A stretch of 64,000 nt of DNA from an uncultured Clostridia bacterium (GTDB lineage: Bacteria > Bacillota > Clostridia > Christensenellales > Borkfalkiaceae), in the NCBI GenBank assembly GCA_947624965.1, contig CANQMN010000005.1, forward strand, positions 36,442 through 100,441, in the 5' to 3' direction. Below, in pieces: positions 28,718 to 38,827 of this stretch (its first letter is position 1; each line of letters begins with the position of its first letter). The notes beneath the pieces were generated by a model. The model did not search any database. It was not told the DNA's origin and was given only the letters and a program-made list of their open reading frames with translations. Both the position numbers and the translations under genes were made by a program.

Positions 28718-30148
28718 TTATTCCTGTTTTTCTTCGGGCGTCTCCGCGGGAGTTTCGCTCTCTTCCGCGGCGGGAGCCTCGGGCTCCTCCGCAGGGGTCT
28801 CTGCGGGAGCTTCGGCACCTTCCTGCGCCTTGCGCTTCGCTTCCATCTTCGCGTCGCGCTTCATCTGCTTCTTCATTTCCTTGGTAACGACGCGCGCCGC
28901 ATCGATCTGCGCCTTCATCTCCTGCGGCGTAGGAGGCACGAACGCCGCGCCCTCCGCGTTTTCGGGGATCACGTCGTAGTGCTCGTCGCGCTCCAAAAGG
29001 GTGGCTTCCGTGTAGCCGTCGAACAGGTGGATGTGCTTCGCGTCGAAGGCAAGCTCGACGATCTCGCCGAGATTGACGACCGCACGGGAAGAGATCTTCG
29101 CAATCATCTGCGCCGCGTTGTCGACGACGGAGTTCTTATCGCTCTCGTAATCGAGGTCGCAGTAGATCTGCGTCTCCGCGCCGAGTTTTTCGATAACGTC
29201 GATGCGCGCCTTCACGAGCGTCTCGGGAGAGGTGGAGATGAACGCCTGATCTTCGTGAATGTCCTCGGGACGGACGCCGAGCGTAACTTCCTTGCCCGTG
29301 TTGAGGTATTCGTCGATGTTCTTGATCTTCGCGACCATCGTCTTGGGAAGGACGATCTTGTTGCCGCCGATGAAGTTCACGCTCACCTTGCCGTTCTCTT
29401 CGGTGAGGGTGGAGTTCTTGAAGAAGTTCATCTGGGGCGTTCCGATGAAGCCCGCGACGAACAGGTTGATGGGATAATCGTAGAGGTTCTGGGGCGTATC
29501 GACCTGCTGCATGAAGCCGTCCTTCATGACGACGATACGGGTGCCCATCGTCATCGCTTCGATCTGATCGTGCGTGACGTAGATGAACGTCGTCGCGAGA
29601 CGGACGTGCAGTTTGGAAATTTCGGTACGCATCTGCGCACGGAGCTTCGCATCGAGGTTGGACAGAGGCTCGTCGAGCAGGAACACTTTGGGCTCGCGGA
29701 CGATCGTTCTGCCGAGCGCGACACGCTGGCGCTGACCACCGGAAAGAGCCTTGGGCTTACGGGAAAGGTAATCGGTGATGCCGAGGATCTCCGCGGCGGC
29801 TTTCACTTTCTCATCGATGACTTCCTTGGGCACCTTGCGGAGCTTCAAGCCGAACGCCATATTGTCGTAGACGGACATATGAGGATAGAGCGCGTAGTTC
29901 TGGAAAACCATTGCGATATCTCTGTCCTTGGGAACGACGTCGTTGACGAGCTTGCCGTCGATGTACAGTTCGCCCGAGGAGATCTCTTCGAGGCCCGCGA
30001 TCATGCGGAGCGTCGTAGACTTACCGCAGCCGGAGGGACCGACGAAGACGATGAATTCCTTGTCGCGGATATCGAGGCAGAAGTTGAACACCGCCTGGTT
30101 TCCGCCGGGATAAATTTTGTTGATGCCTTTGAGTAACAGACCGGACAT
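28718..30148 (-). CDS. MalK/MsmK-type sugar ABC transporter ATPase with about 100-aa charged C-terminal extension
   Basis: 476 aa with Walker A GPSGCGKST, signature LSGGQRQR and Walker B FLLDEPLS, plus a TOBE-like domain and a Lys/Glu/Ala/Pro-rich tail. No permease genes are adjacent. Confidence 0.85.
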   Translation of the reverse strand: MSGLLLKGINKIYPGGNQAVFNFCLDIRDKEFIVFVGPSGCGKSTTLRMIAGLEEISSGELYIDGKLVNDVVPKDRDIAMVFQNYALYPHMSVYDNMAFGLKLRKVPKEVIDEKVKAAAEILGITDYLSRKPKALSGGQRQRVALGRTIVREPKVFLLDEPLSNLDAKLRAQMRTEISKLHVRLATTFIYVTHDQIEAMTMGTRIVVMKDGFMQQVDTPQNLYDYPINLFVAGFIGTPQMNFFKNSTLTEENGKVSVNFIGGNKIVLPKTMVAKIKNIDEYLNTGKEVTLGVRPEDIHEDQAFISTSPETLVKARIDVIEKLGAETQIYCDLDYESDKNSVVDNAAQMIAKISSRAVVNLGEIVELAFDAKHIHLFDGYTEATLLERDEHYDVIPENAEGAAFVPPTPQEMKAQIDAARVVTKEMKKQMKRDAKMEAKRKAQEGAEAPAETPAEEPEAPAAEESETPAETPEEKQE

Positions 30149-30186
30149 AATTTTCCTCCCACAGAAAAGTAGATTTTTATGCTATT

Positions 30187-30215
30187 ATTTTACACGATAT
30201 GAAGGAAAATTTCAA
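30187..30215 (-). promoter_or_regulatory. candidate sigma-A promoter of the ABC ATPase gene
   Basis: The reverse strand reads TTGAAA-17 nt-TGtAAAAT. Confidence 0.4.
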
Positions 30216-30310
30216 GAGAAAATGATAACAAAGATTGACGGGCATTTTGTACAGTTTGCACAAAAAAAGAGGAAAAGCGCCTATTCCTTTTGTGCGGAAT
30301 GCGCGATATT

Positions 30311-31848
30311 CCCCCCCGCGCTCCGCGCGGGGGAGAAGAAGGAAAAGCGCGGGGGTACCAACAACTTACCTCCCCCTTGAAAGGGGGAGGGTTGGGTGGG
30401 GGTTGACGGGAAGGACGAAGGGTGGGGAGAAGAAGCCACTCCCCCTCCCCTATCGCCCGCACGTATTGTGCCGCCGAAGGGCGACACGAGGAGCGGAGCG
30501 ACGAAGTACCCCTCCCCCCCACCCTACCCTCCCCCTCACATCGTGAGGGGGAGGTAAAAACGAGGATGAGGGTAACAAGAACAACAAAGCGCAGGGGGAA
30601 AGTGAAACCACTCCCCCCCTCCTCTCCCCCGCGCGAAGCGCGGGGGAGTGCCAACAACTTACCTCCCCCTTTCAAGGGGGAGGGTTGGGTGGGGGTTGAC
30701 AGGAAGGACGAGAGGCGGGGAGAAGAAGCCACTCCCCCTACCCTATCGCCCGCACGTATTGTGCCGCCGAAGGGCGACACGAGGAGCGAAGCGACGAAGT
30801 ACCCGTCCCCCTCCCCAACCCCTCCCCCTCAATGAGGGGGAGGGTAAATAAGTAGTAATACGCGCGGGGGGAAAGAAGGAAAAGCGAGGGGGTACCAACT
30901 TACCTCCCCCTTGAAAGGGGGAGGGTTGGGTGGGGGTTGACGGGAAGGACGAAAGGTGAGGAGAAGAAACCACTCCCCCTACCCTACCCTCCCCCTCGCA
31001 AAGCGAGGGGGAGGGTAAAAGAAAGAAAAAAGGCGGGGAAATAGAGACCCCCCGCGCTCCGCGCGGGGGGTGAAGAAGGAAAAGCGCGGGGGTACCAACT
31101 TACCTCCCCCCCACTTGAAAGGGAAGGATCTGCCAACTCACCTCCCCCTTGAAAGGGGGAGGGTTGGGTGGGGGTTGAGATCTGCCGCGGCGCTCCTTTG
31201 TCTGCTCTCCCTCCCCAACCCCTGGGTGCGGCGGCAGGTACCGCCGCACCCCCCGTCGCGCTTGCCTGCGCTCCCGTCGCGGCGCGCTACTTCGTGCCGC
31301 GCTTAGTAGACAATAGTGCGCGCGGGGCACAGTCCACTGGACTGTTGAGCAGAACGCGCCGCTCCCCCCCCGCGCGAAGCGCGGGGGGGTTGACGGGAAG
31401 GACGAAAGGTGAGGAGAAGAAACCACTCCCCCTCCCCAACCCCTCCCCCTCGCAAGGCGAGGGGGAGGGTAAAAGAAAGAAAAGCGCGGGGGAGGGTAAA
31501 GAAAGAAAAGCGCGGGAAGGAAAAGACCTCCCCCGCGCGAAGCGCGGGGGTACCAACTTACCTCCCCCTTGAAAGGGGGAGGGTTGGGTGGGGGTTGACG
31601 GGAAGGACGAAAGGTGGGGAGAAGAAACCCCTCCCCCTACCCTACCCTCCCCCCTCACATCGTGAGGGGGGAGGTAAAAAAGACGAACGCGGGGGAGGGT
31701 AAAGAGGGATAGCGCGGGAAGAAAAAGAACTCCCCCGCGCGGAGCGCGGGGGAGGTTTGGTTCGTTATGGATACCGAAAGGTCGGTTGCGTATCCAATGT
31801 GGAGGGGGCTCCCCCTCCCCTACCCCTCCCCCTCAATGAGGGGGAGGG
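30311..31848. repeat. mosaic array of GC-rich palindromic units (left flank of giant lipoprotein gene)
   Basis: It contains recurrent hairpin units CCCCCGCGC-nnn-GCGCGGGGG, CCTCCCCC-TTGAAA-GGGGGAGG with a conserved tail, and CCCTCCCCCTC-loop-GAGGGGGAGGG. Details are in the findings. Confidence 0.85.
31257..31369 (+). repeat. 113-bp direct repeat, copy 1
   Basis: CGCGCTTGCCTGCGCTCCCGTCGCGGCGCGCTACTTCGTGCCGCGCTTAGTAGACAATAGTGCGCGCGGGGCACAGTCCACTGGACTGTTGAGCAGAACGCGCCGCTCCCCCC recurs at 36607-36719 with a single mismatch. Confidence 0.9.
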
Positions 31849-31884
31849 TGGGTTAAGCGTTAACGCCTAATCGGTCGAGAAGTG

Positions 31885-34800
31885 TTACTCTTGGGGCGTA
31901 AGCGTATTGCTGTAACAGAACGAGAGGTTATCGAGCCACCAGGTATTGCCAAGTTGCAATCTGAAAGTGAGCGCTTCCGTCGTAAAGTCATGCAAAACGA
32001 TCTTGTGCTCCCAAACAGATTCGTTCTGGCTGTGCAAACTGATGAGCACCGTGAACTTACTGCCGATCCTGTAAACCGTTACCTCGTAATCCCCGATAAC
32101 TTCCTCATCGCCCTCAACTTCCTCAGCAGGCTGCTGGGGTTTGGTTCCTTGGGTCGTCTCGTTGGTTTCGATTTTGTCATTAGTCAGGTCGCCCCAGATG
32201 TTACCATCGACAACATTGTAGTCGAAGTACTGATTGGCTGCATTAAAGAACTCGACAAAGCCGCAGTTGAAATACTTGCCGGCATCGCGTGTATTCGACC
32301 AAGATATTACCGCTACAAAGTCGCCCGCGGCAACTTGAACCTCGCTCGACGCGTCGCCGCCTTGTCCCCCGATAGCATTCGTATCGGCGTTATAGAAGGC
32401 ATAATTTCTCTCTGCCGTTGCGTTATACGTCGTATCGCTTTCCGTGATGGTGAGTTTCCGCGCGCCGCAGATGGAGCAGACGTTCTCCTCCCACTGGTGG
32501 TCGGCTTCCACTGCGGGAACGCTCTGCGCATTGCCGCTCCTCGTGACCGTGCCCGTGAACTGTACGCCCGCTTCGTCGCCGGCGATCCCGAGCCAATACT
32601 TATCCGCAAGTTTTTGATGCTTGTCGTATGCAGTATAGGTCATCACGTTCTGATAGTGCTTATCGCTCGCGGAGAACGTCGTGGTAACGACGATCTTCGT
32701 CGAATCCGAAAAGTCTACTACGATCTGGAAGTCGGACAAGGAGACCCCCACAAAGCTCGCTTGGAAGGTTTCACGCGAAGAAGCCACGTCGTCTATCGTC
32801 GAGTTAGACGTATAGGCGAGCATCGTATCGACGTTTACCGCACTGTTGCCCTTTGCGTTGTCGTTTACAAGAATGTTGTTGGCTTCGTAAACAGAGAATG
32901 CGATATTCACACTGTCCCCGTCATTCGGCGCCAATACGGCGACAACGGAGTCCCAAGCGTGAGTGAACTGCGTAGACCCTGCGTACGTAACCGTCTGCCC
33001 ATACCCGATGGACATGGAGAGCCATTCGGGCTGGAACCAACCCGTGCCGGTATAAGGCGTTTCGGTGTAGTTTACGCTGTTGAGGTCGTAAACCGCTTCG
33101 AGCGTGATACTGCCGCTCAGCGAAGAGAACTGCGAATCCGCCGTATAGGTCGAATTGTCGTTCGTCCCTTTCCAATAGCGGAAGGTACCCTTCGTGGACG
33201 TGGGATCCTCGTATCCTTCGACGAGGTCGGAAAGTTTGCCGTTCGACGTGCTCGTGAGCCCTGTCTGCTTCTTATACTCCGAACCGTCGTTCATGAGCGT
33301 GATGGTGAAGTCCTCCTTGAACACCGCAACAAACTCGATGTCGTCCATCTCGTCCGTCAGCGTAAGTTCGGAGATCGCCGTGGTATCGCCACTGCCGTCC
33401 GCGGAGTAGGTCGTGCCGTCATACTTCCAGCCGACGAGCGCGTGATCCGTCCACGTAGGGCCGTCCTCGGGAAGGGTGATCGCCTCGCCCGACTTCTTCG
33501 TTTGGGTCTGAACGTCCCACGAATCGCCATCGTAGTCTCCGTCCGTCGTGAAGGTTATGGTGTGCGCCTTCTCCCAAACCGCAACGAACTCGATGTTCGC
33601 AGTGATCGGGGTCTCATACTTTTCGCCGTCGTGCGTGTAGAGGCGCTCGCCCGAAACGTCGGTGGAGAGCTTCCAACCCTTGAAGGTCAGCTTGCCGTCC
33701 GTCGCCGTGGGATCTTCGGGCCACTGATCGGTGAGCGTCGTGTTCTTATCTACATAGAAGGACGTAGAGCCGTTGCCCTTCTCATCCGTGAAGGTAACTT
33801 GCGGGCGCTCTTCCCAAACCGCCGTGAAGGTGGTATCGGCAGTGATCGTCCCGGCGTAGGGGCTCGCCTTGGTGTACTTGGTATCGTCCCCGCCGTTCTT
33901 CGTCCAGCCGAGGAACTTGAAGCCCTCGGGCGCCGTGGGATCGTTGGGCCACTGATCGCCGATCGTCGCGTTTTGGTCTACATAGAAGGACGTAGAACCG
34001 ATGTTCTTGTCATCCGTGAAGGTGATATGCCACTGCCGTTCCCACTGCGCGTTGAACGTCGTCGCGTCAATGATCGCTTCGGAATAGGGGTTCGACTTGG
34101 TGTACTTTTCGCCGTCGTTGCCGTCCTTCGTCCAACCGAGGAACTTCCAGCCCGTTACGACGGGATCTTCGGGCCAAGAGCCCGCGGGGATCGTTTCGCC
34201 CTTTACGACGGAGAGCGTCTTGCCGCTTCCGCCCTTGTTATCCGTAAAGGTAACTTCCCACACTTGGTCTGCGCTCGGCTGGGTGTAAACCGCATACGTC
34301 GCGGGTTCGCCGCCGTAGATGCCGATGCTCTCATCGAGGTAGTGCAGGAACCAATATTCGAGATCTTCGTCTCCCGAAGCAAAGCCGACGTAGCCGTAAC
34401 CGCCGAGCCACATGATCGCGCCCGTCTTGGCGCCCATCGACAGGCTGCCCTCTTCGATGATAACGGTCTCGTGCTCCGCCGCCATCCACGTGCCTTCCAC
34501 GTCCGAGGGTGCGAGACCGATCGGGTTCTTCGTTGCATTCGCAGAGCCGATGACGATGTGGTCCGTATCATACGTGAAGGAAAGGAGGCCGCTGTACTCG
34601 GTGGTATACGTGCCGTCTGCATAGTTGACCGCTACGAGACGCGCGGACTGGGTATCGCCCGCCGTCCAGATGAGCGCATTCGCAACGTGCGTGCCCTCTA
34701 CATCCGCGGGAACGGTGATGAGAATGGTGTCGTTCCCGTTCGCATACTGCCCTTCGATCTCCAATTCCCAAACTGCGGCATACTCGTATGTCTCGCCGCC

Positions 34801-36183
34801 TTCGAGTTCCGTGATCGTCTCGCCGGGAGCTTTAATTGTCATCGAGCCGACGCCGTGGCCGCCCCCTTCATTGACGCCCCAACCCTTGAAGGCGTAGCAA
34901 CCGAGCGACGCCGTAAATCCGAGCGCAGAAGGCTGGGGAAGGGTGAGCGAGAAGGTATCCGAAGTTTCCGTAAGGCAAGCGCGCACCTTGTTGTTTGCCT
35001 TGCCGATCGAGCCGCCCTCACCGCTGCCCGCGTTGAACACAACTTCGGGACGGATGGCGACTTTTTCGCCGTAGAGCGTGATATCTGCCGTCGGAACGTA
35101 GGTATAGTCCACAAGGGTGGTCGCATCGTGCGTCGTCTCGTCCGTATACCAATACATTTCCTGCGTCCAAACATCGTTTTCGAGCGCTTCGTCATCGACG
35201 TCGCTGAACGCCCACTCGTCGCCGATGGGCTCGCCCTTCGCGACTTCGATCGTCGCGGTGAGCGGCGCCCCCTCCACAGAGAAGGAGACCGTCCACTTGT
35301 CCTCGGCGAGAATATCGCCGTTCTCGTACATCGTGCAGCTGTCGCCGCCCAGAACGTTGACGCCGCCCGTCGTCTTTTCCACGATGTAGTAGTCGTCGTC
35401 GGCGCACGTAAGGACCGCCCACTTGCCGAGATAAATTACGGTGTAGCCGTCGCCGTCAAGGGTCGCCATGCCGCCCGTCTTGATTTCGAGACGGGACGTC
35501 TCATGATGATAGACGCCGACAAATTCGGGCGTTGCGGGAAGCGCGGCATGCTCGGTGAGTTGGAGCGTATCCATATCGCCGTACTTAAACGTGAGCGTTC
35601 CTTCCGCATAGGAGAGGATCGCATCCTCGGCGGGAAGCGCATTCCCCTGGATGCTTTTCAGCGTATACGCGCCGTCCTCTTCGTCAACTTGGAGAAGTAT
35701 CGTAAAACAGTGCGAGCTCGACGAATCGTCGCGGGCAACCATCACGAGGTCGTAATCGTAGCCTGCCAACGTGCCCGCGGCTTGAATGCCGATCTCCATG
35801 GTCATCGTAACGCCGGGCCCCTCCGAATCCGTGATGGTCCAGAGACCCGGGATGCCGTCGGGAACGTTTTCCTGCCACTGCGCGGTGAACGTTACGTTCT
35901 TCTTGGGCATCGTATATTCCGCCTTGGCGGCGTACGTCTTCGTGCCGTCGCTCCAACCCGTGAACGTATGATTCTCATACGAATAGGTGCTTTCCGCAAG
36001 CTGGAACTTTTCCCCCTCTGCGTGCGTTTCGCTTTCAGGCGTCGTTCCCGTTACCGCCGTGTTGCCCGGCGCGTACGTTACGGTGTACTTGTCCCCCTCC
36101 GTCTCCGTACACGCGGCAATGCCGCACGCCAGAAGCGATACGAGAAGAACGGAGCCGAACACTTTGCACAAAAGTTTCTTCAT
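31885..36183 (-). CDS. 1432-aa surface lipoprotein with InlB B-repeat (Listeria-Bacteroides repeat) domains
   Basis: It has signal peptide plus lipobox MKKLLCKVFGSVLLVSLLACGIAAC. There are at least 6 repeats ending in F.GW...(A/T)(V/Q)W (e.g. FLGWTKDG...FNAQW, FKGWKL...FVAVW). The C-terminus has beta-sandwich-like domains. An AGGAGG RBS is present. Confidence 0.8.
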   Translation of the reverse strand: MKKLLCKVFGSVLLVSLLACGIAACTETEGDKYTVTYAPGNTAVTGTTPESETHAEGEKFQLAESTYSYENHTFTGWSDGTKTYAAKAEYTMPKKNVTFTAQWQENVPDGIPGLWTITDSEGPGVTMTMEIGIQAAGTLAGYDYDLVMVARDDSSSSHCFTILLQVDEEDGAYTLKSIQGNALPAEDAILSYAEGTLTFKYGDMDTLQLTEHAALPATPEFVGVYHHETSRLEIKTGGMATLDGDGYTVIYLGKWAVLTCADDDYYIVEKTTGGVNVLGGDSCTMYENGDILAEDKWTVSFSVEGAPLTATIEVAKGEPIGDEWAFSDVDDEALENDVWTQEMYWYTDETTHDATTLVDYTYVPTADITLYGEKVAIRPEVVFNAGSGEGGSIGKANNKVRACLTETSDTFSLTLPQPSALGFTASLGCYAFKGWGVNEGGGHGVGSMTIKAPGETITELEGGETYEYAAVWELEIEGQYANGNDTILITVPADVEGTHVANALIWTAGDTQSARLVAVNYADGTYTTEYSGLLSFTYDTDHIVIGSANATKNPIGLAPSDVEGTWMAAEHETVIIEEGSLSMGAKTGAIMWLGGYGYVGFASGDEDLEYWFLHYLDESIGIYGGEPATYAVYTQPSADQVWEVTFTDNKGGSGKTLSVVKGETIPAGSWPEDPVVTGWKFLGWTKDGNDGEKYTKSNPYSEAIIDATTFNAQWERQWHITFTDDKNIGSTSFYVDQNATIGDQWPNDPTAPEGFKFLGWTKNGGDDTKYTKASPYAGTITADTTFTAVWEERPQVTFTDEKGNGSTSFYVDKNTTLTDQWPEDPTATDGKLTFKGWKLSTDVSGERLYTHDGEKYETPITANIEFVAVWEKAHTITFTTDGDYDGDSWDVQTQTKKSGEAITLPEDGPTWTDHALVGWKYDGTTYSADGSGDTTAISELTLTDEMDDIEFVAVFKEDFTITLMNDGSEYKKQTGLTSTSNGKLSDLVEGYEDPTSTKGTFRYWKGTNDNSTYTADSQFSSLSGSITLEAVYDLNSVNYTETPYTGTGWFQPEWLSMSIGYGQTVTYAGSTQFTHAWDSVVAVLAPNDGDSVNIAFSVYEANNILVNDNAKGNSAVNVDTMLAYTSNSTIDDVASSRETFQASFVGVSLSDFQIVVDFSDSTKIVVTTTFSASDKHYQNVMTYTAYDKHQKLADKYWLGIAGDEAGVQFTGTVTRSGNAQSVPAVEADHQWEENVCSICGARKLTITESDTTYNATAERNYAFYNADTNAIGGQGGDASSEVQVAAGDFVAVISWSNTRDAGKYFNCGFVEFFNAANQYFDYNVVDGNIWGDLTNDKIETNETTQGTKPQQPAEEVEGDEEVIGDYEVTVYRIGSKFTVLISLHSQNESVWEHKIVLHDFTTEALTFRLQLGNTWWLDNLSFCYSNTLTPQE

Positions 36184-36325
36184 TCTGGTCCTCCTGATAT
36201 TATTTTTGCTCTATGTCCAACGGTTATGCATCTCTCCCGAGAACCCCCATTGCCGGGAGAAAAGCATCGCCACCTGTGCCGATTTCCTCGGTTTTTTTGA
36301 CAATAAAAACCAATTATGTGGGTAT

Positions 36326-36355
36326 AGTATACCATTACCCCCCCCCGAATGTCAA
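36326..36355 (-). promoter_or_regulatory. promoter of the giant lipoprotein gene with a G9 tract in the spacer
   Basis: The reverse strand reads TTGACA ttcGGGGGGGGGtaatgg TATACT. The spacer is 18 nt with a TGg extended -10. The C9 run lies at 36338-36346 on +. Confidence 0.55.
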
Positions 36356-36390
36356 CCGTTTTGTGAAAATTTATTTTTTATTATAAGGTC

Positions 36391-37477
36391 TGCGCGCCCG
36401 CGCGTGAGAAACCACGCCCTTCGGCGCACTTTTCCACCCCCACCCCTTATGAGGGGGAAAGAGAGTGTTCTCCCCACGTTGAGGGGGGGAACGAAGCCAC
36501 TCCCCCCACCCTACCCCTCGGGTGCGGCGGCAGGTACCGCCGCACCCCCCGTACTTCGGCGCAATGCGCCTCGTGCCGCGCTTAGTAGACAATCGTGCGC
36601 GCGGGGCGCGCTTGCCTGCGCTCCCGTCGCGGCGCGCTACTTCGTGCCGCGCTTAGTAGGCAATAGTGCGCGCGGGGCACAGTCCACTGGACTGTTGAGC
36701 AGAACGCGCCGCTCCCCCCTCGCTTGCGAGGGGGGAGGTAAAGAGAACCGACGAGAGGGATATATAGCTACCTTCCCCCTCGCTTGCGAGGGGGAAGGTA
36801 AAAAGGAAAACGCGGGGAGAGAATATATCCACCTCCCCCCTTCCAAGAGGGAGCAAAATCTATCTACCTCCCCCTTCCAAGGGGAAACAAAATATATCCA
36901 CCTCCCCCTTTCCAAGGGGGAGGGTTGGGTGGGGGTTGATTTCCTCACTCGCCTTTCCCCTCTCCTTTCCTCCCCCTCATTGAAAGGAGAGAAAAATAGA
37001 GTGTTCTCCCCTCAACGAGGAGAGAACGAAGCCACTCCCCCTACCCTGCCCTTCCCCCTCGCAACGCGAGGGGGAAGGTAAAGAGAACCGACGCGGGGAA
37101 ACAAAATCTATCTACCTCCCCCTTCCAAGGGGAAACAAAATATATCCACCTCCCCCTTCCCAAGGGGAAACAAAATATATCCACCTCCCCCTTTCCAAGG
37201 GGGAGGGTTGGGTGGGGGTTGATTTCCTCACTCGCCTTTCCCCTCTCCTTCCCCCCCTCATTGAAAGGAGAAAAAATAGAGTGGTCTCCCCTCGTTGAGG
37301 GGAGACCGAAACCACTCCCCCTACCCTACCCTCGGGTGCGGCGGCAGGTACCGCCGCACCCCCCGTACTTCGGCGCAATGCGCCTCGTGCCGCGCTTGGT
37401 CAATAATAGTGCGCGCGGGGCGCGCTTGCCTGCGCTCCCCCTACCCTGCCCTCCCCCCTCGTGAACGAGGGGGGAGG
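36391..37477. repeat. mosaic array of GC-rich palindromic units (right flank / upstream of giant lipoprotein gene)
   Basis: It uses the same unit families as the left array. It also has about 34-bp mini-units (caaaatatatccaCCTCCCCCttccaaGGGGG) and a duplicated compound unit (36854-37046 and 37102-37329). Confidence 0.85.
36607..36719 (+). repeat. 113-bp direct repeat, copy 2
   Basis: It matches 31257-31369 with one A/G mismatch. Confidence 0.9.
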
Positions 37478-37539
37478 TAAGAGGGAACCGACGCGGGAGG
37501 AGGGAAAAACGGCGTGGGAGGAGAGAGCGGCATAAAAAA

Positions 37540-37567
37540 TCCGCGCGGACAGATCTGTCCGCGCGGA
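37540..37567 (-). terminator. rho-independent terminator of clpX
   Basis: The palindrome is TCCGCGCGGACAGATCTGTCCGCGCGGA, followed on the reverse strand by ATTTTTTATG. Confidence 0.7.
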
Positions 37568-37587
37568 ACGGTTTCCCTATTCTTCCG

Positions 37588-38817
<1,230 letters not shown>

Positions 38818-38827
38818 ATTCACTCCG

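Follow-up and report, generated by a model that had tools for sequence, protein, structure and literature searches.

An intergenic mosaic of triplex-type hairpin repeats between clpX and a giant lipoprotein gene in a Borkfalkiaceae genome

What is the repetitive DNA that separates clpX from a giant lipoprotein gene in an uncultured Clostridia bacterium of the Borkfalkiaceae, and does it act on the gene beside it? The stretch analyzed here (the window) comprises 64,000 nucleotides of contig CANQMN010000005.1 (G000:C5:36442-100441), from a genome, labelled G000, of 1.79 Mb, ~60% G+C and 98.7% completeness in 34 contigs; positions without a prefix are those of the window. The 1.15-kb array upstream of the giant gene is non-coding DNA built of short hairpin repeats, and it occupies the whole gap (36184-37587) between two minus-strand genes. 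On the downstream side, the start of the gene for a 1432-aa lipoprotein (31885-36183) faces the array, and on the other side lies the stop codon of clpX (37588-38823), with clpP and tig upstream of clpX. A second array, referred to as the left array, lies beyond the other end of the giant gene.

In the reading that we favor, with a probability of roughly 0.55, the array consists of selfish, structure-prone non-coding repeats that have spread into DNA where they do no harm, that grow and shrink locally, and that serve as a recombination substrate at a slot where genes are exchanged, without regulating the lipoprotein gene. New here are the occurrence of a known repeat class in a new lineage and a new sequence variant of it.

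Architecture of the array units

The core of the array consists of two copies of a compound element, each made up of a homopurine/homopyrimidine hairpin with a G-rich third block, a ~90-nt spacer with two small hairpins, and a mirror-image motif on the opposite strand; truncated hairpin mini-units and a GC-rich composite element lie around and inside these copies. In the motif at 36901 and 37184, a homopyrimidine arm and its homopurine complement are followed by a block of G and T, an exact mirror of the purine arm in which each A is faced by a T and each G by a G. As judged from their base order, the array units have the architecture of class II purine-motif intrastrand triplexes. They agree with the general ITxF class II definition in having a pyrimidine, a purine and a third block, stems of 6-15 nt, loops of 1-6 nt, at most one mismatch, and G.G-C, A.A-T or T.A-T triads antiparallel to the purine arm. 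The array holds four such motifs, with 10-11 of 11 valid triads, and these form two inverted pairs. Other traits of the class were also found, namely a 96% intergenic location, inverted pairing, and a copy number that ranges from 0 to 205 among 61 genomes of one genus.

With an ITxF-like scanner written for this work (9-nt stems, at most one Watson-Crick mismatch and at most one triad mismatch), 151 motifs were detected in the genome, compared to 0 in each of five block-shuffled genomes, and reverse-read control patterns were absent (0) from the 61 genomes of the genus. The third block differed from its own hairpin by 0.97 mismatches and from permuted hairpins by 1.42 +/- 0.04, a control that is weakened by the common descent of the copies. 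Two variants of the motif proved informative. The variant CCTCCCCC/GGGGGAGG/GGTGGGGG has 54 copies in G000 and at most 8 in 4 of the 60 other species, and the variant CCCCCTCC/GGAGGGGG/GGGGGTGG has 0 copies in G000 and 1-205 in 26 of the 60. Between the two, the A/T interruption is shifted in all three blocks together, so that the change is compensated three ways, and chimeras of the two variants were found neither in G000 and G055 nor in the loci of three relatives. Taken together, the three-way compensation and the range of 0-205 copies within one genus suggest active turnover of the motif and constraint on it.

The same sequences raise the question of G-quadruplex (G4) formation. Canonical G4 motifs were found in the array at 36915-36939 and 37198-37222, and the genome holds 250, of which 172 are intergenic. 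We nevertheless rejected the G4 as the conserved feature: it is found in the G000 variant but not in the dominant variant of the genus, GGAGGGGGG-TA-GGGGGGTGG, which keeps the triad rule without four separate G3 runs. Because the dominant variant does so, it is the mirror (triad) relation and not G4 potential that is conserved.

A preliminary description of the window had listed many of these repeats, and the features that it named are present, at or 1-3 bp from the positions it gave. They include the G hairpin (GGGTGCGGCGG-CAGGTA-CCGCCGCACCC), found at 36520-36547 and 37334-37361 and, in the left array, at 31224-31251, as well as the unit families and orientation common to both arrays (direct families D1, D2, D5, D7, D9, D11, D13 and D16). 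The ~34-bp tandem mini-units exist too; TRF reported tandem units at 36814-36922 (period 34, 3.2 copies) and 37095-37202 (period 35, 3.1 copies), and the exact mini-unit positions are 36832-66, 36867-900, 37115-48 and 37149-83. Some statements needed amendment. The four hairpins described as D type are all in place (36712-36738, 36771-36797, 37050-37077 and 37450-37477) but are not all alike, the first two being plain and the last two belonging to full minus-strand triplex motifs. The compound unit is indeed duplicated (36867-37050 and 37149-37333, about 92% identical), but the proposed period of 248 bp holds only at the left edge; beyond it, an additional 35-bp mini-unit in the second copy (unit B) lengthens the period to 283 bp.

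When folded and compared to shuffled sequence, the D hairpins reached -17 kcal/mol (z = -3.9 to -4.9) and the E hairpin -6.7 kcal/mol (z = -3.2); the mini-units folded weakly (-4 kcal/mol, z = -0.6), and the 57-nt unit gave no significant fold against its shuffles. An Rfam scan of 30000-38500 returned only sub-threshold microRNA-like hairpins, the best at 31 bits against a cut-off of 72. The three E hairpins (36467-36492, 37003-37027 and 37283-37307) differ from each other in a compensated manner, with stems GTTCTC/GAGAAC versus GGTCTC/GAGACC, and their loop is inverted between copies (CAACG versus CGTTG), a signature of hairpin flipping or template switching. Genes were called with our own codon-bias model; open reading frames (ORFs) of 61-103 aa occur within the repeats of the array, and none of them passes the codon-usage model. 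In the left array, a 196-aa ORF on the minus strand (30190-30780) has no Pfam match, fails the same model, and is probably not a gene.

The GC-rich composite element (190-245 nt) occurs at five or more loci, both arrays included, with 92-98% identity, and is composed of a C-tract, the G hairpin, one or two units with a 36-nt core (CGTGCCGCGCTTAGTAGACAATAGTGCGCGCGGGGC), and a terminal hairpin. Because this element is present in both arrays, a 117-bp direct repeat, 98% identical, brackets the lipoprotein gene (31257-31373 and 36607-36723). The 36-nt core has ten copies in G000 and is found in 10 of the 61 genomes, with up to 22 copies and identical in several species; its 15-nt loop is conserved, with few compensated changes in the stem. 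We found for this core no known family and, across the genus, no link to a REP (repetitive extragenic palindrome)-associated tyrosine transposase (RAYT); PF01797 (Y1_Tnp) was detected in 16 of the 60 relatives, unrelated to the core or to the triplex motifs. The parts of the array are collected in Table 1.

Table 1. Parts of the array and its two boundaries (window positions); triplex motifs are predicted from the triad rule.
Feature	Position	Strand	Remarks
Promoter of the 1432-aa lipoprotein gene (TTGACA, 18 nt with poly-G run, TATACT)	36326..36355	-	proximal boundary, outside array
GC-rich short palindromes, promoter-proximal, and degenerate C/G-tract hairpin	36391..36466		
E hairpin copy 1, GTTCTCCCC...GGGGGGGAAC	36467..36492	+	
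C-rich tract CCACTCCCCCCACCCTACCCCTC	36493..36519	+	third-block-type module, parted from its hairpin by G hairpin
G hairpin GGGTGCGGCGG-CAGGTA-CCGCCGCACCC	36520..36547	+	-16.2 kcal/mol, z = -4.85
GC-rich composite element body	36548..36711	+	two 36-nt core copies (36573-36607, 36644-36678)
Two plain homopurine/homopyrimidine hairpins (36712-36738, 36771-36797)	36712..36831	+	in 60-bp tandem repeat, no adjacent third block
Two 34/35-bp mini-units	36832..36900	+	truncated weak hairpins
248-bp segment, one compound unit	36854..37101		missing from assembly L054
Triplex motif CCTCCCCCTTT-CC-AAGGGGGAGGG-TT-GGGTGGGGGTT	36901..36939	+	11/11 valid triads, also canonical G4 motif
Inner spacer of compound unit A	36940..37027	+	pyrimidine-rich hairpin (about 36960-36991) and E hairpin copy 2 (37003-37027)
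Mirror-image triplex motif: purine arm GAGGGGGAAGG, loop GCAG, third block GGTAGGGGGAG	37028..37080	-	11/11 triads; read on + strand, C-tract plus D hairpin (37050-37077)
Two 34/35-bp mini-units of compound unit B	37115..37183	+	
Triplex motif copy 2	37184..37222	+	identical to 36901-36939
Inner spacer of compound unit B	37223..37333	+	E hairpin copy 3 (37283-37307) and C-rich tract (37308-37333)
Short-form GC-rich composite element	37334..37434	+	G hairpin 37334-37361, 36-nt core 37387-37421; between two copies of CTCCCCCTACCCT(A/G)CCCT
Triplex motif	37435..37477	-	10/11 triads; read on + strand, C-tract plus D hairpin (37450-37477)
Purine-rich tail, last unit to terminator	37478..37539		
clpX intrinsic terminator (12-bp stem, then TTTTTT)	37540..37567	-	distal boundary

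Distribution in the genome

We next asked where else such repeats lie. Iterated blastn searches with both arrays yielded 78 clusters, 20.4 kb in total and 96% outside called genes, spread over 48 gene-to-gene gaps and about nine contig ends (~57 sites). Not one of the 116 divergent gaps (>=50 bp) held a cluster, compared to 48 of 511 other gaps (Fisher p = 5.7e-5), and convergent gaps were the richest (21/103). Of 67 stretches from a stop codon to a cluster, 55 contained a terminator-like hairpin; the median distances were 104 bp on the stop-codon side of a cluster and 110 bp on the side of the next start codon. Because clusters throughout the genome usually lie terminator-distal and never in divergent gaps, the order of terminator, array and promoter is a general rule and not special to the lipoprotein gene. 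This placement, with repeats as frequent downstream of genes and in convergent gaps as upstream, lends no support to the earlier suggestion that the array is an upstream regulatory region. The DNA of the array is probably largely untranscribed.

Genes of at least 1000 aa were enriched beside clusters (12/41, compared to 81/1211 for other genes; odds ratio 5.8). The proposed tie to surface-protein genes is weaker than had been implied, since large housekeeping-type and non-secreted genes are among them and the clusters lie upstream in 6 cases and downstream in 7. Contigs end inside clusters at both ends of C3, at the ends of C5, C13 and C27, and at the starts of C6, C17, C23 and C28; the repeats limit the assembly, and their true number is therefore underestimated.

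To follow the repeats over evolutionary time, we compared gene adjacency with the whole genome of G055, which is free of the motif. Genes flanking repeat gaps were adjacent in G055 in 11 of 47 cases, compared to 172 of 446 for control gaps (p = 0.056) and 84 of 200 when the controls were limited to gaps of 200 bp or more (p = 0.02). Where adjacency was kept (11 gaps), G055 mostly had a shorter gap, by about the length of the repeat (433 versus 52 bp and 663 versus 83 bp, for example), so that the repeats behave as clean insertions there.

One sequence of the repeats reaches beyond the genus. An exact 25-mer, AGGGGGAGGGTTGGGTGGGGGTTGA, has 24 copies in G000 and is found at 19 loci of a metagenome-assembled genome (MAG) of an uncultured Tepidisphaeraceae bacterium (Planctomycetota; L031-L053, e.g., CAYQTE010000015.1), where it lies inside a conserved element of more than 200 nt, and once each in MAGs of Betaproteobacteria, Planctomycetaceae and Ignavibacteriota, which adds two further phyla. 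It is mostly preceded by a pyrimidine hairpin arm, and a mirror-image C-type unit then follows. A collection of viral contigs held no match to the 25-mer.

At the locus itself, the array sits, as the preliminary description had stated, between the clpX terminator (37567..37540) and a TTGACA-18-TATACT promoter (36355..36326), both on the minus strand. The promoter was graded strong, with TG just upstream of the -10 hexamer, and has its own A/T-rich upstream tract; the array begins 36 bp upstream of the -35 box. An unrelated giant gene (1783 aa) in G014 has a promoter, TTGACG-cgggggggggtgattgtag-TATAAT, whose spacer also contains poly-G (L013:2190-2230) and echoes window 36326-36355. The 1432-aa protein begins with MKKLLCKVFGSVLLVSLLACGIAAC, a lipoprotein-type signal, and contains one Flg_new (Listeria-Bacteroides repeat) domain. 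Spo0A is encoded in the genome, which places the host among the spore-forming Firmicutes.

The clpX-ABC slot, copy number and the DUF559 cassette

We compared the slot in 20 relatives with clpX as anchor, and from the gene orders seen there the clpX-ABC interval clearly appears as a variable slot across the genus. It is empty in G012 and G041, in which the ABC ATPase gene follows directly after clpX, and in G011 and G008 it is a 570-885-bp gap with a repeat block and no gene (triplex motifs were found in G011, and none were detected in G008). The slot genes of other species differ (1783 aa in G014, 1671 aa in G043 and 1291 aa in G018) and share the same orientation, and none of 40 genomes of the genus had a full-length orthologue of the 1432-aa gene. 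The slot is flanked on both sides, in G018 and G014, by 1-1.8-kb mosaics of the species' own motif variant; the scanner found no triplex motifs in the G043 slot interval. The conserved flanks around the slot (6-13 kb) held no motif in any of 15 loci scanned. Comparison with the empty sites placed the insertion in the window at about 30270-37540, comprising array, promoter, gene and array. In G020 (L011), the closest ClpX relative, the gene order past clpX is wholly different, with opposite-strand genes and no ABC ATPase gene within 6 kb; read from this gene order, the slot is also a rearrangement breakpoint.

Copy number was examined in other assemblies of the same strain. Exact-protein look-ups with ClpP, the giant protein and the ABC ATPase retrieved independent same-strain assemblies from four ENA samples and two Logan runs; look-ups with ClpX and with the DUF559 protein described below gave no match, nor did metagenome contigs scanned with locus-specific patterns. 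Assembly L054 (ERZ27249481) spans the locus with one mismatch in 8340 nt and with 248 bp missing (36854-37101), the junction lying inside 57 nt of perfect identity and the breakpoint anywhere within it. L055 and L058 match the two-unit form, and the remaining same-strain contigs break inside the arrays. The 248-bp difference represents either a real copy-number change, by unequal crossing-over or slippage, or the collapse of an assembler loop at k=55.

A candidate partner of the repeats emerged from a second cluster. The single PF04480 (DUF559) gene of G000 (C19:1772-2116; 115 aa, 110 bits, intact, 41% G+C compared to 60% for the genome) lies, overlooked by our gene caller, inside a repeat cluster, beside a gene for a 2144-aa lipoprotein, and is flanked by a plus-strand motif (1727-1760) and a minus-strand motif (2166-2200) of contig C19. 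The layout of this cassette is that of the compound unit, with the gene in place of the ~90-nt spacer. The closest solved relative of the protein is PDB 3HRL, deposited as "endonuclease-like protein" (E = 2e-17). In the 61 genomes, DUF559 was found in 22 of 27 motif-positive and 8 of 34 motif-negative genomes (odds ratio 14, p = 8e-6, Spearman 0.56). With a relaxed scanner, 16 of 24 DUF559 loci of relatives had a motif within 250 bp, 10 of them on both sides, against a G055 background of 3 per Mb. No DUF559 remnants were found inside the arrays.

At the DUF559 loci of "motif-negative" genomes (L181-L192), the gene has on its flanks a triplex variant with a long loop, its purine arm and third block being separated by a 16-20-nt mini-hairpin, as in CCTCCCTTGTGTAAAGGGAGG-TGACACGCGGAGCGTGAC-GGAGGGATTG of G001. 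To judge from its place, no more, the G hairpin of the array may correspond to this insert.

Readings of the array and comparison with known systems

How, then, could the array have arisen, and what does it do? In the favored reading, the compound units would derive from the DUF559 cassette as copies without the gene, or else serve it as target sites, and would have been copied into DNA that tolerates insertion. The array would lengthen and shorten by replication slippage or unequal crossing-over between its 34-35-bp and 248/283-bp repeats. The arrays, being direct repeats on either side of the species-specific lipoprotein gene, would act as recombination substrates and help to make the clpX-ABC gap a hotspot of gain, loss and replacement, and they would not regulate the gene. 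A role as recombination substrate is the part of the preliminary description that fared best, and its support is circumstantial, consisting of the 248-bp indel, the direct 117-bp repeat, the variable slot and the weaker synteny. In E. coli, loci with triplex motifs vary more than control loci (PMC4666352).

Several observations weigh against this reading. Triplex formation in duplex DNA was not detected for the E. coli motif (PMC4666352). The association between motif and DUF559 ignores phylogeny and has exceptions in G018 (191 motifs) and G015 (63 motifs), both without DUF559, and the E. coli control genome has no PF04480 match, although BoxC-type repeats occur there according to the literature. 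DUF559 is a nuclease-fold protein (Vsr-like, PD-(D/E)XK) and not a known transposase. No consistent target-site duplications were seen, and an 18-bp repeat around 37334-37434 may be part of the element. The 57 nt of identity at the L054 junction is close to the typical k of 55, so the 248-bp gap could be a de Bruijn loop collapse. No deletion variant that joins clpX to the ABC gene was found in the four samples, and the synteny effect is modest (p = 0.02-0.06) and based on a crude gene caller of our own.

A more specific form of the proposal is possible, and we offer it tentatively: the triplex-motif pairs may be non-autonomous copies or homing targets of the DUF559 cassette, which would give BoxC, PIT and TMECO repeats a partner enzyme; the arrays may be landing pads that, by recombining, cause giant surface-lipoprotein genes to be exchanged at fixed chromosomal slots; and the 25-mer AGGGGGAGGGTTGGGTGGGGGTTGA may be a conserved recognition sequence or the 5' untranslated region of the cassette. 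In the literature searched, no paper links DUF559 to these repeats.

The strongest competing explanation, which we regard as rather unlikely, is that the repeats are real but inert, pile up passively in long unconstrained spacers such as those beside newly acquired genes, and have no causal role in the variability of the slot, with DUF559 merely sharing the same tolerant sites. The confinement of clusters to probably non-transcribed, terminator-distal gaps, the weak synteny effect, the motif-rich genomes without DUF559 and the lack of a known function for the E. coli motifs all fit this explanation. It accounts less well for the inverted motif pair that precisely brackets the DUF559 gene, in G000 and at most of the 24 relatives' loci, and for the three-way compensated variants and the 0-205 range in copy number.

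Less probable still is a transcriptional insulator, a possibility that the preliminary description had also raised, in which a polar hairpin barrier or supercoil buffer would block read-through from clpX-clpP-tig and shield the lipoprotein promoter. Such a role would suit the position of the array between terminator and promoter, the 23 terminator-like sites in 30000-38500 (10.3 +/- 3.3 in shuffles), most of them on the gene-sense strand and 6 within the array, and the single orientation relative to genes of 16 of 18 oriented units in co-directional gaps. However, a strong terminator already stands at clpX, the additional hairpins either fold weakly or have T-tracts that are displaced, and the repeats also fill convergent gaps, where there is no promoter to shield. 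PIT/TMECO motifs showed neither terminator nor promoter activity in E. coli (PMC4666352), and the orientation bias could be explained just as well by the direction of replication, given how strongly the genes of this genome are co-oriented.

Very improbable is a regulatory or phase-variation element that would tune the giant lipoprotein gene through G4 or triplex formation or copy-number change, as in the Neisseria pilE G4: the canonical G4 motifs, the candidate copy-number variation of the 248-bp unit and the adjoining surface-protein gene with its poly-G promoter spacer would agree with it, but units lie at about 57 sites, downstream of large genes as often as upstream and in no divergent promoter region, the main genus variant keeps its triads without four G3 runs, and about 550 bp separate the -35 box from the closest complete motif. 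An invertible promoter was rejected as well, as no convincing inverted repeats of that type flank the lipoprotein promoter.

Intrastrand triplex repeats of the BoxC type have, to our knowledge, been known since 1992, and we know of no explanation of their origin, spread or function. The genus studied here offers a clean natural experiment, with sister species that carry 0-205 copies, two three-way compensated variants, and one DUF559 gene with the same ends as gene-less units, and both selection on the third block and DUF559 as partner enzyme can be tested at the bench. The array illustrates the accumulation and variation of triplex-type repeats at a hotspot of gene exchange. Since these repeats frame a slot in which gut Firmicutes exchange giant surface lipoproteins, they bear on strain-level variation in the gut and on breaks in MAG assembly.

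Four known systems invite comparison. Like the Neisseria pilE G4, the array has one strand with a four-run G-rich motif and lies upstream of a gene for a variable surface protein; the two presumably share the core GGGTTGGGTGGG. Here, however, the motif is dispersed over dozens of unrelated sites without silent donor cassettes, and it is the triplex rule, not the G4 property, that is conserved in the genus. A second comparison is with miniature inverted-repeat transposable elements. The inverted ends of the compound unit are the same in kind as those of the DUF559 cassette, so that terminal inverted repeats are common to a gene-carrying element (DUF559 locus C19:1772-2116) and to its gene-less relatives; there is one gene-carrying copy compared to many gene-less ones, and the repeats appear as clean insertions in syntenic comparisons. 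They differ from such elements in that no transposase has been identified and the short copies hold no gene remnants.

With the REP elements and bacterial interspersed mosaic elements (BIMEs) of enterobacteria and pseudomonads, the repeats share the grouping of palindromic units, whose relative orientations are fixed, into intergenic mosaics that are enriched at 3' gene ends and in convergent gaps. In contrast to these, the clusters here lie beyond terminators and not within transcripts, as placed by predicted terminator-like hairpins (55/67), and the units carry a third block. REP/BIME repeats with a RAYT were rejected, as PF01797 has 0 matches in the 98.7%-complete genome and shows no correlation across the genus.

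The closest likeness is to BoxC, which equals the PIT elements and TMECO of E. coli and comprises class II purine-motif intrastrand triplex repeats (Holder et al. 2015, PMC4666352). Both have a pyrimidine arm, a loop, a purine arm, a short loop and a third block of G and T in mirror image to the purine arm; both are G/C-rich and strictly intergenic, with many near-identical copies, often as inverted pairs on opposite strands; and in both, copy number is very unequal between close relatives. An association with variable loci, as in E. coli, is modest across this genome and clear at the clpX-ABC slot. The strict TMECO pattern, CCCTCNCCC N3-6 GGGNGAGGG N3 GGGNGAGGG, has 0 matches on both strands of the genome, and the repeats are therefore members of the general class and not TMECO itself. 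The stem here is CCTCCCCC(T) and not CCCTCNCCC, one triad is G.G-C where TMECO has A.A-T, and loop 2 has a length of 2-4 nt. Whereas TMECO hosts are proteobacterial, with 23 motifs in 4.6 Mb, the spore-forming Firmicute studied here has 151 in 1.8 Mb, assembled into kilobase mosaics with tandem mini-units and a second element. TMECO favors positions upstream of ORFs, but the clusters here avoid the promoter side; in addition, a DUF559 gene bears the same ends as the repeats.

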